A stretch of 64,000 nt of DNA from positions 1,824,001 through 1,888,000 of the forward strand of contig CBDCNP010000002.1 of assembly GCA_965219415.1 (NCBI GenBank), in the 5' to 3' direction. Below are positions 20,044 to 47,957 of the stretch, in pieces. The notes under the pieces are model-generated. The model made no database searches. It was not told the origin of the DNA and saw nothing but the letters and a program-made list of their open reading frames with translations. The translations under genes and the position numbers were made by a program. The stretch comes from Candidatus Marinacidobacterales bacterium (GTDB lineage: Bacteria; Acidobacteriota; Vicinamibacteria; Marinacidobacterales; DATDRI01). Positions within the stretch are counted from its first letter, which is position 1, and each line of letters starts with the position of its first letter.

Positions 20044-21244
20044 GGTGCTTCCGCAATTAAGTGTTGGCGGCCAGCCTCTAACCGGTCTGCGTGCTAGAGT
20101 TTGAACCAGAATTCCGAAGACACAGTTCTCTCATCGTCAGGGCCGAGCCAAAGTGAAGAATCGCAGATGTCTCAATCTCGCATGTCCGTTGCGGGGCAAA
20201 GTCAGTTCCGGAAACATCGTTCGCCACGGATTCTACCGAACCAGGTCCGGGAAACGCCGTCGATACCGGTGCGGCGAGTGCGGAAAGACGTTCTCCTCGA
20301 CGAAAGGCACGCCCTACTACCGTCTCCAACATCGAAGAGCTACTTTCGATGTGGTCATCGCTCTCAGAGTCGAGGGTGTCAGCATTTCCTCGATTTCCCG
20401 GGTCGAAGGGATTGCCTGGAACACCGTCGCCCGCTGGCTCGAGAAGGCAGTCCAAGTGTGTCGTCGATTCAATCACAGAAGGATCGCTGGCTTCGCTGCC
20501 GAAGAGCTTCAAGCCGACGAGATTCGCACGTTCGCGGGCAACAAGAAGACACCGAGTGGGGTCTTCGTTACAATCGAGGTCTGGTCTCGGCTCTGGCCAT
20601 CGACGGTGACGGGAAGGCGAAGCTACCGGAACACTCACGCTCTGTTTCGCGACCTTTCGAGACGGATGAATTTCGAGCGTCTTCCCTTGATCGTCACGGA
20701 TGGATTCGAATTCTACCAGAAGGTCATCCGTCGCTTCTTCGGGCCAGCGTGTCTTTATGGCCAGGTCCTCAAGACGCGCAGGAACGATCGCATCATCAAG
20801 GTCGAACGGAGAGTGCTGCACGGAGCCGCGTGGCGATTCGAAGACGCGCTCAATAACTCCGAGGACTCTTCGACATTGAACACGTCGTTCATCGAGCGGT
20901 TGAATCTGACCATCCGGCAAAGCTCGGCATACCTTTCGAGACGAACGCTTTCCCACGCTCGCTCGACGGAGAGGCTCGATGAGCACCTGGAGTTGCTCCG
21001 TTGCTATTACAACTTCGTCCGACCGCACCGGAGCTCTGAAGTTCGGACGTGAGATCCGAACTCCGGCTATGCAGGCTGGTCTGACGACGCGACGGCTCAC
21101 CTTTCGAGACATCTTCTTGGCGACGACGATTCCTTTGTGGTCGCGGATCGAGGTTTTCGTGCTCAGTAGGGCGCGCAACCCGCTCTCTTCCGCACCTGTA
21201 CCACTGCCCGCAGCCGCGTAGCAACACTTGACGGCGGAAGCACC
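20044..21244 (+). mobile_element. IS1-like insertion sequence (zinc finger-HTH-DDE transposase from 20153, frameshift near 21030)
   Basis: 23-bp TIRs GGTGCTTCCGC(A/C)(A/G)T(T/C)AAGTGTTG; CLNLACP...RYRCGECGKTFS, QADE, TDG, NTSFIERLNLTIRQ, YYNFVRPH; no target duplication. Confidence 0.85.
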
Positions 21245-21267
21245 GATTAGAGGTGTCTAGGCTTGGT

Positions 21268-21415
21268 TGTGCCTTCTATTTATTCATCCGCCAGCCCCAT
21301 GGGTCGGAAGTCAGCCCTGCGGCGCGAAATACCCTGGATTCTGCGCGGATTCCAAGGGCGTCTAAGCTGCTGATTTGTGGTCTATTTCTAAAGGGCCGAG
21401 TTTTGGCACAGGACG
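21268..21415 (+). mobile_element. MITE-A
   Basis: Full copy with the same extra-C variant (CAGCCCCATGGG) as 4297-5706. Confidence 0.9.
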
Positions 21416-26193: not shown

Positions 26194-26359
26194 GGTGCTT
26201 GCGCCATTTACTGTTGGTGATGTGTGCGCATCCCTTTGCAAAAGAGGCGCTTACGCTCCATTTAGCGCGCAGCGAAGGTCACGAGCGCTATTTTGACTGT
26301 AATTTAATGCACTATAAAGTCTTAGCGTCATCTCAGCAACACTTGATGGCGGAAGCACC
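26194..26359 (-). mobile_element. MITE-B
   Basis: GGTGCTTGCGC...CAACACTTGATGGCGGAAGCACC. Confidence 0.9.
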
Positions 26360-32597: not shown

Positions 32598-32744
32598 TGT
32601 GCCTTCTATTTATTCATCCGCCAGCCCATGAGTCGGAAGTCAGCCCTGCGGCGCGAAATACCCTGGATTCTGCGCGGATTCCAACGGCGTCTAAGCTGCT
32701 GATTTGTGGTCTATTTCAAAAGGGCCGAGTTTTGGCACAGGACG
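32598..32744 (+). mobile_element. MITE-A
   Basis: Full copy. Confidence 0.9.
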
Positions 32745-33869: not shown

Positions 33870-34115
33870 GGTGCTTCCGCAATCAAGTGTTGGTGGCTGC
33901 CGCGTAACCCGCTCGCGTGCTAGAGTTTGGGCCTGATTTGGATAGATGCAAGTTCTTTCGGCGATACCGGCTGGGCTGACCACGCGGTGCCTGACGTTCA
34001 GGGACATCTTCGTGTGCACGCCGACATCCTTAATTTATGGCGTTCGCCGACACAGGCAGGCCAACTGATATTAGCATTCAAACGCGGCGTAGCAACACTT
34101 GATGGCGGAAGCATC
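33870..34115 (+). mobile_element. Internally deleted IS1-like element (246 bp)
   Basis: Both TIRs present; inside resembles the AGLTTRRLTFRDIF tail of 20044-21244. Confidence 0.8.
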
Positions 34116-45332: not shown

Positions 45333-45575
45333 TGTGCATCGTCAAAACTGCTCCGCCCACGAAATCAAGGACTTACGCTCCGCTTGAATTCCGGGCCGAA
45401 GACGGCGAAACTCCGCCGCTATGCTCAACGTTGTTGTCTTCCTCGTCTCACTTGGCGTCCGTGCCATTCGGGCGATGTGTCGGCACCGCGCCGACCTGGT
45501 GTTGGAGAACGTCGCTTTGCGGCAGCAAGTGACGGCGCTGAAGAAAGAGCGCCCACGCCCACCGCTCGACGACAA
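45333..45575 (+). pseudogene. rve/IS481-like left end and transposase N-terminus (family J)
   Basis: TGTGCATCGTCAAAACTG; MLNVVVFLV...RADLVLENVALRQQVTALKKERPRP. Confidence 0.8.
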
Positions 45576-45820
45576 GTGAAGTGAAACTCGGATGCTCCGG
45601 TAGTTTTTCTAAGCTCCGAAAGGGCTGCCGGAAACTGCCTCCACACCTCGCCAATGTGCTCCTTTGGAACCACGACGGCGACCCATGACTTTCGACTAGC
45701 GCGAAGATGCGGGGGCGTGTTCCGCAGGCCTGGGGATCCCGTGTCATCAACGAAGATTCCATGAATGGAACCGGCACGCTGTTGATCGATGAAGTTCTGA
45801 TATCGAAATTTAGGTTTCAC
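45576..45820 (-). pseudogene. DUF3800-like protein, N-terminal stub
   Basis: IFVDDTGSPG ... SEFHF pattern. Confidence 0.5.
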
Positions 45821-46084
45821 GGGAGAAGGAATACCACGCCTAACTACAAATTAGACTGTTTCCGCCTAAAATCCCCAACACTGCATGACGCCGCTTCCCA
45901 TCACGCGGGCCGCCTTCGTGAACGTATTGGAAGCACAGGGCTTATGGGAATCGGTCCTGGAGATATAATGCAGGAACTTGCAGGGTGCTTCCGCCATCAA
46001 GTGATGGAATGGACTCCTCCACTGACATAGACGGCATCGATGTGCCAAAGTCAGTCGAATACGCATCGAAAAGGAGGAGTCCGA

Positions 46085-47116
46085 ATGAAAGATACGACAA
46101 TCGCTGTGGATCTTGCAAAGAACGTCTTCGAGATTGCCATCTCGGGAGAAGCGGGGAAGGTGTCCAAGCAACTCCGTGTGAGTCGACCCAAATTGGTGTC
46201 GTTCTTTGCCAAACAGAGCGCTGCCACCGTGCTTCTCGAAGCCTGCGGCTCGGCTCACTTCTGGGCAAGGACGTTCCGAAGGTTGGGACACGACGTCGTC
46301 CTGCTCCCACCTCACCTCGTGAGGCCGTATCGACGCGGGAGCAAGAACGACCGCGCCGACACGAAGGCGTTGCTCGAGGCCTACAGGAACGAGGAGCTTC
46401 TTCCCGTACCCATCAAGTCCGTGCACCAGCACACCCTCGCTGCGCTCCATCGCCTGCGCTCAGGATGGCTCTCCACACGGACCGCACGCATCAATGCCGT
46501 ACGCGGGCTCCTGCGCGAACTCGGATTCATCATCCCAAAGGGCGCTCACTTCGTCGTGCCCGCCCTCTTCGAACTCGTCGAAGACGCTGATTCTGATTTG
46601 CCCGACGTGCTCCGTTCGCATCTCCGTGATGCCTGCTCCGAGATTCGAGAACTCAAGGACAAGTGCGCTAGCATCGAGCACGAGCTCAAGGCGCTCACCA
46701 AGCAGCTTCCTGAAGTCCAACGACTTCTCGCCATTCCCGGCATCGGACTTCTGGCCGCGACCGCCATCGTGGGCTTCGTCGGCGATCTTCGCCGCTTCCC
46801 ATCGGGGCGCCGCTTCTCGAGCTACCTCGGCCTAGTTCCCAAGGAAAACTCCAGTGGCGACATTCGCCGCCTCGGACGCATCACCAAGCGTGGCGACTCC
46901 TACCTCCGTATGCTCCTCACCCAGGGCGGGCGCGCCGTGCTCCGCGCGGCGAACGTCAGCAAGAGCCCGCCCGACAAGCTCCGCGCCTGGGCTCGGAAGG
47001 TCCACCGCTCGCGGGGACACAACAAGGCCGTGATTGCTGTCGCCAACAAACTCGCCCGGATCGTCTGGGCCGTCTCCACCCGCGAGAGTGAATTCCAGTC
47101 GCCGGTGGCCGCTTAG
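46085..47116 (+). CDS. IS110/IS1111 DEDD recombinase
   Basis: IAVDLAKNVF, LEACGSAHFW, KNDRAD, IPGIG, YLGLVPKENSSG, ITKRGDSYLR, AVANKLARI. Confidence 0.96.
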   Translation: MKDTTIAVDLAKNVFEIAISGEAGKVSKQLRVSRPKLVSFFAKQSAATVLLEACGSAHFWARTFRRLGHDVVLLPPHLVRPYRRGSKNDRADTKALLEAYRNEELLPVPIKSVHQHTLAALHRLRSGWLSTRTARINAVRGLLRELGFIIPKGAHFVVPALFELVEDADSDLPDVLRSHLRDACSEIRELKDKCASIEHELKALTKQLPEVQRLLAIPGIGLLAATAIVGFVGDLRRFPSGRRFSSYLGLVPKENSSGDIRRLGRITKRGDSYLRMLLTQGGRAVLRAANVSKSPPDKLRAWARKVHRSRGHNKAVIAVANKLARIVWAVSTRESEFQSPVAA

Positions 47117-47189
47117 ATTTAGAGGCTCCACTTTCGTGTTTTCCTTTTTCCCTTCCAAAAGAGGCTGCGACGATACCCATCCAACTGAT

Positions 47190-47345
47190 GGCGTACCGGT
47201 CGGACCGGCGCGGGGTCAAGCCAATAGCAACACTGGCCCTAAGAGGTCGTTCAAAGTGATTGGCTCCTCGCGCGCGGATTTTCCATCATGGCCCGGAGCA
47301 CCCAAGACGCTCCTCACTGAGGCCGAAGATACGTTTGCAGTCTGA
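47190..47345 (+). ncRNA. Predicted bridge/seek RNA of the IS1111 element (boundaries approximate)
   Basis: Stem GCCAAT/ATTGGC enclosing target matches; second loop with TTCCATCAT and AGATACG matching the element's own end junction. Confidence 0.75.
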
Positions 47346-47570
47346 CCCACTCGTCACGACGCGATGGATGCGCAGCTTCGATGGAAGATTTATTAAGAAA
47401 GGGGCGTGACTAGAAAGAAAGGGGCTTGACTAGAGGAGTCCAGATATGTTGCTACGCGGCTGCGGGCAGTGGTACAGGCGCGGAAGAGACCGGGTTGCGC
47501 GCCCCCGCTGGTCCAAATACTCGAACGCCCAGTTCGCCAATCTCATACAGCTCGAGTTTATGGAAGGGAC

Positions 47571-47957
47571 AGGGACTACAGCGAGCGGCGGAAACAACTC
47601 GGACGGCCCCGGGTCATGGCGGAGATTAGCGAGCTCGTTGTGGGGATGGCTCAGTATCATGGAGAGCGCAACCATCAAGGGCTCGGGAACGTGTTGATCG
47701 AAGCGGAAGAATGCGTCGGTAGTCCCGACGGGAAGGTGCGATGTCGTAAGCGATTGGGCGGCTTGCTCAGTTACTACCACCGCGCCGCCGCATAGGAGTT
47801 CGGGCGCGCCAGCTGGACGGAACGGATGTTCTGGAGGAGAGCTTCTGCTCGGGGTCGCCTATCGCAGCTCCAGTGCCGCGTCGGCTGGTCCCCGCGAATT
47901 TCGACAACGCCTCTAGGATTAGAGATTTCGGCTCCGTTCGCATTTTCGGACACGACG
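47571..47957 (+). pseudogene. Family-F transposase remnant (internally deleted) and right end
   Basis: DYSERRKQLGRPRV... fused to YHGERNHQGLGN...RLGGLLSYYHRAAA*; ends TTTTCGGACACGACG. Confidence 0.82.

Follow-up and report, generated by a model that had tools for sequence, protein, structure and literature searches.

In the window analyzed here, a stretch of 64,000 nucleotides (64 kb) from contig CBDCNP010000002.1 of a Candidatus Marinacidobacterales bacterium, an insertion sequence (IS) of 1445 bp assigned to the IS1111 group (46004..47448) interrupts the right terminal repeat of an IS1-like element; this and all further features lie on the + strand unless stated otherwise. The inserted element is very probably RNA-guided, and would target the end repeat shared by the IS1-like element and a MITE (a transposable element of the miniature inverted-repeat type) through a bridge/seek RNA encoded in its 3′ non-coding region. 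The copies in the genome occupy one kind of site in one orientation, and repeat ends that continue with TTGCTA are strongly selected. The RNA structure predicted for the 3′ region is maintained by compensatory changes, and its loop strands covary with the insertion flanks of related elements. A guide RNA programmed against the IS1-like repeat had been proposed in an initial annotation of the window, and the coordinates and sequence statements given there were all verified.

The junctions of the element were read from the sequence as GGTGCTTCCGCCATCAAGTG|ATGGAATGG on the left (46003/46004) and CCAGATATG|TTGCTACGCGGC on the right (47448/47449). The left target half (45984..46003) comprises the 20 outermost bp in the right terminal repeat of the IS1-like element, with its last TG (46002-46003) serving as the shared core, and the right target half (47449..47506) is formed by the inner 58 bp of the same terminal region, which starts with TTGCTA. 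The element splits a repeat end, as had been annotated initially, and its flanks rejoin to an uninterrupted repeat such as is found in intact copies. Its boundaries are ambiguous by 2 nt, because TG is present at both junctions.

To define the insertion site, the whole genome (8.05 Mb in three contigs) was searched for copies of the element. BLAST returned 16 full-length copies (1-1445) at 100% identity and 8 at 99.93% identity, together with a few variants and fragments, and the transposase frame was uninterrupted in 29 copies. All 33 left junctions in the genome were preceded by the same 20-mer (GGTGCTTCCGCCATCAAGTG) with at most one substitution. The right flank, which was scored in the 29 copies where the right end lies within 1.7 kb, was TTGCTA in 28 and TTGGCG in one. 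The orientation of insertion was identical in every copy, and only the TG was common to both junctions, without further target duplication. The element is thus very probably an active or recently active insertion sequence, with one site and one orientation.

The comparison of occupied and empty sites showed which part of the repeat end matters for insertion. When up to 3 mismatches were allowed, 481 occurrences of the 20-mer were counted in the genome, and 477 candidate sites were scored. The element occupied 28 of 115 TTGCTA-type ends, compared with 1 of 362 other ends (Fisher p=7.4e-18), which bears out the earlier suggestion that the other repeat copies, most of them carrying TTGG, are spared. 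Even when the left half was perfect (CATCAAGTG), at least 43 TTGG-type ends among those listed were empty and 1 was occupied. By host class, the element was found in 15 of 65 IS1-like right ends and in 11 of 27 MITE ends of the TTGCTA type. Empty matching sites, which had also been noted initially, were found within the window at 21213-21237 and at 34084-34108, both of which show 1 mismatch when compared with the 25-nt joined pattern (2 matches were obtained in none of 100 shuffles), and a TTGCTG variant of the site is located near 26334. A near-identical element carrying the same proposed guide was also inserted, in sister genomes, at non-repeat sites, which share with the repeat only TCAAGTG|TTGCT (L078, L079). 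Therefore, the recognized site is about 12-13 bp long, as the lengths of the guides predict.

By its sequence features the element is an IS110-family member of the IS1111 group, as first annotated, because its protein domains, subterminal repeats, 3′ non-coding region, protein length and GL-P----S(t)G motif agree in this. The 343-aa transposase (46085..47116), for which an additional in-frame ATG is present at 46040, matched PF01548 (E=6.9e-12) and PF02371 (E=3.2e-24) in Pfam, and in NCBIfam it matched NF033542, "IS110 family RNA-guided transposase", with 302.9 bits at a cut-off of 140. The DEDD residues D9, E52, D89 and D92 were invariant in an alignment of 16 homologues, as were G249, L250, P252, S257 and G258 within the motif GLVPKENSSG. 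The left subterminal inverted repeat TGGACTCCTCCA (46010..46021) pairs with positions 47431-47442 of the right one (TAGAGGAGTCCA; 47431..47448 together with the extension GATATG), and the two lie 6 nt from each element end, with the extension ATGGAA outside the left repeat. This subterminal pair (GGACTCCTC / GAGGAGTCC) was conserved in 14 of the 18 best homologous loci. Within the element, 81 nt of non-coding sequence precede the transposase gene and 332 nt follow it. A downstream non-coding region, subterminal repeats, a protein of 330-350 aa and the GL-P----S(t)G motif are given as characteristics of the IS1111 group in PMC11187229. The closest annotated plasmid match of the protein was an "ISPa25 family transposase" with 45.9% identity over 99% of its length.

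To describe the structure of the 3′ region, homologues of the element were aligned. Those with 48-62% protein identity were obtained from 400 other genomes of the same phylum, of which 31 gave a match at E<=1e-40, and further homologues with 92-98% identity came from sister genomes. About 160-180 nt of the 3′ region were alignable across the homologues. The predicted core of the bridge/seek RNA (47162..47343) is closed by pairing of AGGCTGC (47162-47168) with GCAGTCT (47337-47343), and folds into seven helices. In 13 homologues 90.5% of 505 cells were paired in this structure, compared with 30-44% when the partners were slid by 1-3 columns, a percentage that is somewhat favored by construction, since the structure was derived from this element and RNAalifold. 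Changes on both sides were found in 14 of 39 pairs in the same homologues, and none of 500 shuffles reached as high a score. Folding and comparison with homologues, which had been suggested as a check, thus yielded conserved helices with compensatory changes. In Rfam no family matched between 45500 and 48000, where the single row returned was a chance microRNA below threshold.

The proposed target guides are located in the target-binding arm of this structure (47219..47265), which comprises the stem AGCCAAT/ATTGGCT, the guide G1, an inner hairpin (47235-47248) and the guide G2. The stem, helix 5 of the consensus, contains the GCCAAT (47220-47225) and ATTGGC (47259-47264) that were initially annotated as closing the guide loop. 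It was paired in 91% of cells with compensatory changes, and encloses an internal loop; the proposed guides are the two strands of this loop, with the short hairpin between them. G1 (TAGCAACACT, 47225-47234) is the exact reverse complement of AGTGTTGCTA, that is of AG-TG-TTGCTA, as had been noticed before. In neither sense did the non-coding region share a longer match than these 10 nt with the reconstructed target, and when the non-coding region was shuffled by dinucleotides, a match of at least 10 nt to the reconstructed site was found in 10 of 2000 cases. G2 (TTCAAAGTG, 47250-47258) has the sense of the top strand, and would pair with the bottom strand of ..CAAG-TG. Positions 47251-47258 (TCAAAGTG) resemble TCAAGTG, as had been stated before, but the two agree only if an additional A is allowed, or else over AAGTG without a gap. 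The top-strand match lies 5′ of the bottom-strand match, and the two overlap at the core. The same order of strands is reported for IS1111 seekRNAs in PMC11187229.

The comparison with related elements showed that the variable positions of the alignment are the unpaired loop strands, and that these track the insertion flanks. When G1 was compared with the right flank in 9 lineages, the cognate pairing sum was 72, compared with 39.8 +/- 5.0 after permutation (P=1e-5), and the cognate pairing was the unique best in 8 of the 9 lineages. This test left out L034 and L039, whose right flank is that of L031; L036 and L037, which have the element of L035, and L048, which has that of L043; L044 and L047, where the contig stops short of the flank; and L040, L042, L045 and L046, which yielded no subterminal repeat. 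In 10 lineages, the comparison of G2 with the left flank gave a cognate sum of 45, compared with 28.7 +/- 3.3 after permutation (P=4e-5); L032, with a left flank of only 3 nt, was left out of this test, and L168 and L174 were in neither permutation test. In L076, where the protein is 94% identical, G1 is GATAACAATCGT and G2 is TTTGCAGCG, and the insertion site is ...CTCCAGTG|ATTGTTATCC (...CCAGTG|ATTGTTATCC). In L168 and L174, which are two copies from another genome, G1 is GCAACTGCGT and G2 is GTCCGGACG, and the site is ..GTCCAGATG|CAGTTGC. The fact that the loop strands change with the flanks across relatives gives the proposed programming of the guide RNA comparative support beyond the evidence from a single sequence. 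L168 and L174 contain at about 325-400 of the reverse strand a second, inverted subterminal repeat, about 60 nt inside the left end (GGACTCCTCCTG ... CCCAGGAGGAGTCC), and this inverted repeat pair forms a hairpin directly upstream of the transposase start.

A second part of the predicted RNA (47280..47333), which consists of the segments G3 and G4 with a hairpin between them (47290-47324), corresponds to the ends of the element itself. G3 (TTTCCATCAT, 47280-47289) is complementary to the core plus the left end, and its part TTCCATCAT (47281-47289) is a 9-nt complement of the predicted circle junction A-TG-ATGGAA. The sense of G4 (GAAGATACG, 47325-47333) is that of the right end plus the core. 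The comparison of G3 with left ends across lineages gave 65 versus 59.3 +/- 1.5 (P=7.5e-4), and G4 follows the right ends, with ATATA accompanying CATATA and AGATA accompanying CAGATA. In a sister variant G4 contains AGATATG. The 5′ part of the RNA contains a further box, TGATGG (47186..47191), which has the sense of the core plus the left end; its predicted pairing partner is CCATCA (47283-47288). In RNAalifold and pair counts this helix 2 was paired in 92% of cells, with both sides changed in 3 of its 6 pairs. Hence, the second loop of the initial annotation is supported in part: G3 and G4 match the element ends and follow their changes, but the CCATCA of G3 also forms a covarying helix with TGATGG. 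The model would allow either that G3 is masked in the free RNA or that both strands of the left end are read.

Taken together, these data point to a mechanism in which the 3′ non-coding region would encode a bridge/seek RNA, transcribed from this part of the element. The internal-loop strand UAGCAACACU would pair with the top strand of the target, AG-TG-TTGCTA, and the other loop strand, UUCAAAGUG, with the bottom strand of ..CAAG-TG, and G3 and G4 of the same RNA would hold the joined ends of the element. This pairing would position the DEDD/serine recombinase, and a circular copy of the element would recombine at the TG core, 20 bp inside the right terminal repeat of the IS1-like element and of the MITE derived from that family. 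The fixed site in the repeat would lead to landing in one orientation, while TTGG ends would mismatch the guide and hence be spared.

Several observations weigh against this mechanism. On the side of the target guides, the 7-nt match of G2 needs a 1-nt bulge, L041 is without a clear G1 match, and G2 matches are poor in L031, L034 and L039. Two copies are located at mismatched ends, one at C3:5105436 (TTGGCG) and the other, L099, in a sister genome (TTGGTA). The L076-type variant was seen once, as 1 of 26 matches at 100% in its own genome and in none of the 31 relatives searched. On the donor side, internal base pairing is predicted for G3 in the RNA, and the AGATACG of G4 (47327-47333) has C for T when compared with the AGATATG of the right end. 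In most relatives the guides, as well as the right end, have CG at the core, while the left junction has TG; in the element studied here the core is TG throughout except in G4. As for expression, a consensus scan of 45900-47560 gave no sigma-70-like promoter, and the assembled contigs of four public runs (out of 24 runs in which the sequence is present, all as contigs) contained no right-end-to-left-end joint and no readable RNA ends. Contigs of RNA-labeled libraries do include fragments from the transposase gene and the 3′ region, but the presence of these fragments is no demonstration of transcription.

The uniform setting of the copies could also be explained by a single old insertion, which was multiplied as a passenger when the host IS1-like element or MITE later transposed or was duplicated. 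Such a history would fit the recurrence of some outer flanks, with GAAATAGACC found at three occupied sites and CGATGCAGAG found twice, and also the uniformity of the ten occupied MITE copies, which measure 1689-1692 bp end to end. However, the hosts fall into at least three sequence classes with their own point differences beside the junction, and the majority of the outer flanks differ, which argues for independent insertions. It is also difficult to reconcile passive spreading with the sister-genome insertions at non-repeat sites, which share only the 12-13-nt motif, or with the covariation of guides and flanks in other lineages; moreover, a split repeat end would be unlikely to be usable by the host transposase. 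We consider this history to be very unlikely. The view that the transposase protein alone reads the repeat, and that the 3′ region is complementary only as a side effect, for instance because it once recombined with the target, draws on the fact that the guide RNA is here a prediction, but has to contend with proteins that are 94% identical and have different loop strands matching different flanks, and with the results of the permutations (P=1e-5 and P=4e-5). The RNA was also required in four IS1111 relatives according to the experiments described in PMC11187229. This view appears to us even less probable than the single insertion.

The conserved 3′ structure could instead serve mRNA stability, termination or the translational control of the transposase, and have no role in targeting. 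Its location in the 3′ untranslated region of the transposase, the internal pairing of G3 and the outcome of the promoter scan, in which a separate promoter was not found, would all be expected for such a purpose. It would not explain why variability coincides precisely with the unpaired loop strands, which track the flanks, and a scan of the element found no terminator-like site on the + strand. This makes a role apart from targeting the least probable of the explanations considered. RNA-guided targeting by the 3′ bridge/seek RNA is the reading which we favor. A wider picture built on it is speculative and we think it rather doubtful: the TGATGG box would be an internal donor mimic, which holds the bridge RNA shut until it is displaced by the real joined ends, or else would reflect the reading of both strands of the left end; natural retargeting would occur at close range, between proteins 94% identical; and the element would be a hyperparasite, which splits one of the two ends of its hosts and could curb an expanding IS1-like/MITE family.

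The intact IS1-like host in the window is 1201 bp long (20044..21244), with terminal repeats of about 20-29 bp at both ends, and its right end contains the empty target at 21213-21237 on the minus strand. Its left end reads ...AATTAAGTG|TTGGCGGCC and its right end ...CATCAAGTG|TTGCTACGCGG, and only the right-end type is hit. The match of its open reading frame (20153-21052) to the IS1 transposase model NF033558 had E=4.8e-22 and 78.9 bits, which is under the cut-off of 100, and Pfam gave only a weak rve_3 match. The MITE (33870..34115), which is about 245-246 bp long and has the same repeat ends, contains the empty target at 34084-34108 on the minus strand in a TTGCTA-type end, and further short elements have the same end as this family. 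The host of the copy in the window is a remnant, in which the IS1-like sequence ends 58 bp past the element, while other copies run into the IS1-like body. The insertion may disable the host end that it splits: at occupied IS1-like right ends a left end was found at 1100-1300 bp in 3 of 15 cases, compared with 27 of 50 empty ones, a weak difference (p=0.037) that is also open to other readings. The repeat family itself may build an array.

In the 64-kb window 16 copies of the 20-bp repeat end were found (8669, 12902, 30158, 30789, 34960, 37971 and others). Most of the repeat ends in the window belong to a class that continues with TTGGTGAGATGACGC, which has 129 copies in the genome and for which no regular partner end was found. 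A short repeat (…CTATTTATTCATCCGCCAGCCC…GGAAGTCAGCCCTGCGGCGCGAAATACCCTGGATTCTGCGCGGATTCCAAGG…) adjoins the IS1-like ends at 21250-21400 and 32600-32700. The N- and C-terminal parts of an rve-like integrase-type transposase frame (45421-45579 and 47469-47795) flank the element and the IS1-like remnant, which suggests nested insertions into a third element.

Close to its right end the element contains two tandem copies of a 20-nt unit (47395..47434; unit AAGAAAGGGGCGTGACTAGA), which end in a -35-like TTGACT (47426-47431). Copies of 1425 or 1465 bp are found elsewhere in the genome, and copies from sister genomes have one unit fewer; therefore, the copy number of the unit varies. The TTGACT of the last unit would face the left end in a circle, where together with the TGGAAT of the left end it would make a candidate junction promoter, such as a circular intermediate may carry. 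In several copies, one from the same genome (G000:C3:3316853-3315125) and the others from sister genomes (L060, L068, L069, L072, L073, L074, L085), the right end is joined to sequence internal to the element rather than to the repeat. These joints fall in the transposase gene or in the 3′ region, as in CCAGATA-GG-CTGCGACG in the same genome and CCAGATATG|ATTGCTGTCGCC in L060, and some of the sites are weakly target-like, with xG-TG on the left. They appear to have arisen when the element inserted into a second copy of itself or recombined with it. Five matches to the RNA region of about 193 nt without a transposase, which come from five related genomes (L161, L173, L178, L179, L182), were considered as orphan guide genes and rejected, as they are 5′-truncated right ends joined to the TTGCTA repeat. 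These relics are cut off by a repeat ending ...TTTCAAAAGGGCCGAGTTTTGGCACAGGAC, and the left flank is common to three of them.

RNA-guided targeting from a 3′ non-coding RNA has already been published for the IS1111 group (PMC11187229, PMC11208160). The mechanism and the targeting of other mobile elements' repeats both have precedents in the literature, and the element described here is a well-documented new example. It adds an IS1-like repeat to the mobile-element repeats targeted by the IS1111 group, and leaves the knowledge of the mechanism unchanged. In one literature search, no report of an IS1-family repeat as a target was seen among the papers listed, although supplementary target logos or RNA models could include relatives of this element. 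The 477 scored sites, which are near-identical, differ at a few guide-facing bases and can be read out as occupied or empty, amount to a natural specificity experiment, and the close relatives in which guide and site have changed together help to define the target positions that are important in IS1111-type systems. Such systems are of interest as genome-editing tools.

Among the nearest precedents are IS4321 and IS5075, which reportedly target the terminal repeats of the Tn21 family. Like them, the element belongs to the IS1111 group, has subterminal repeats, and inserts into the terminal repeat of a different transposable element with a single position and orientation. In contrast to them, its hosts are an IS1-like insertion sequence and a MITE in an acidobacterial genome, and the matching TTGCTA is present at only one of the two host ends. 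In Coxiella burnetii, 20 of 21 copies of IS1111 are located in QMITE2, and 10-20 bp of the MITE remain 5′ of the insertion (PMC5896051). There too, an IS1111-type element occupies the repeats of another mobile element, with nearly all of its copies in one MITE family; the two cases differ in the target, which in QMITE2 is a palindrome inside the MITE resembling repetitive extragenic palindromes (REP-like), while here it is the terminal repeat common to an autonomous insertion sequence and its MITE.

Of the systems with experimental evidence, ISPa25, ISKpn4 and ISPst6 belong to the IS1111 group, and their seekRNA was shown experimentally (PMC11187229). The element shares with them the downstream non-coding region and the order of a top-strand match before a bottom-strand match. 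It differs from them in its target and its distant phylum, and in that its RNA is a prediction from the sequence. The core of IS621, an IS110-group element, is CT. In its bridge RNA, as presented in PMC11208160, one guide pair serves the target and another the donor, and around a 2-nt core each pair takes one flank from the top strand and the opposite flank from the bottom strand. The predicted RNA described here is similar in having a guide pair for the target and a putative second pair for the donor. It is different in that it is encoded at the 3′ rather than the 5′ end of the element, that the core is TG (CG in relatives), and that the donor strand G3 is predicted to be paired with the 5′ box instead of lying in a simple internal loop.

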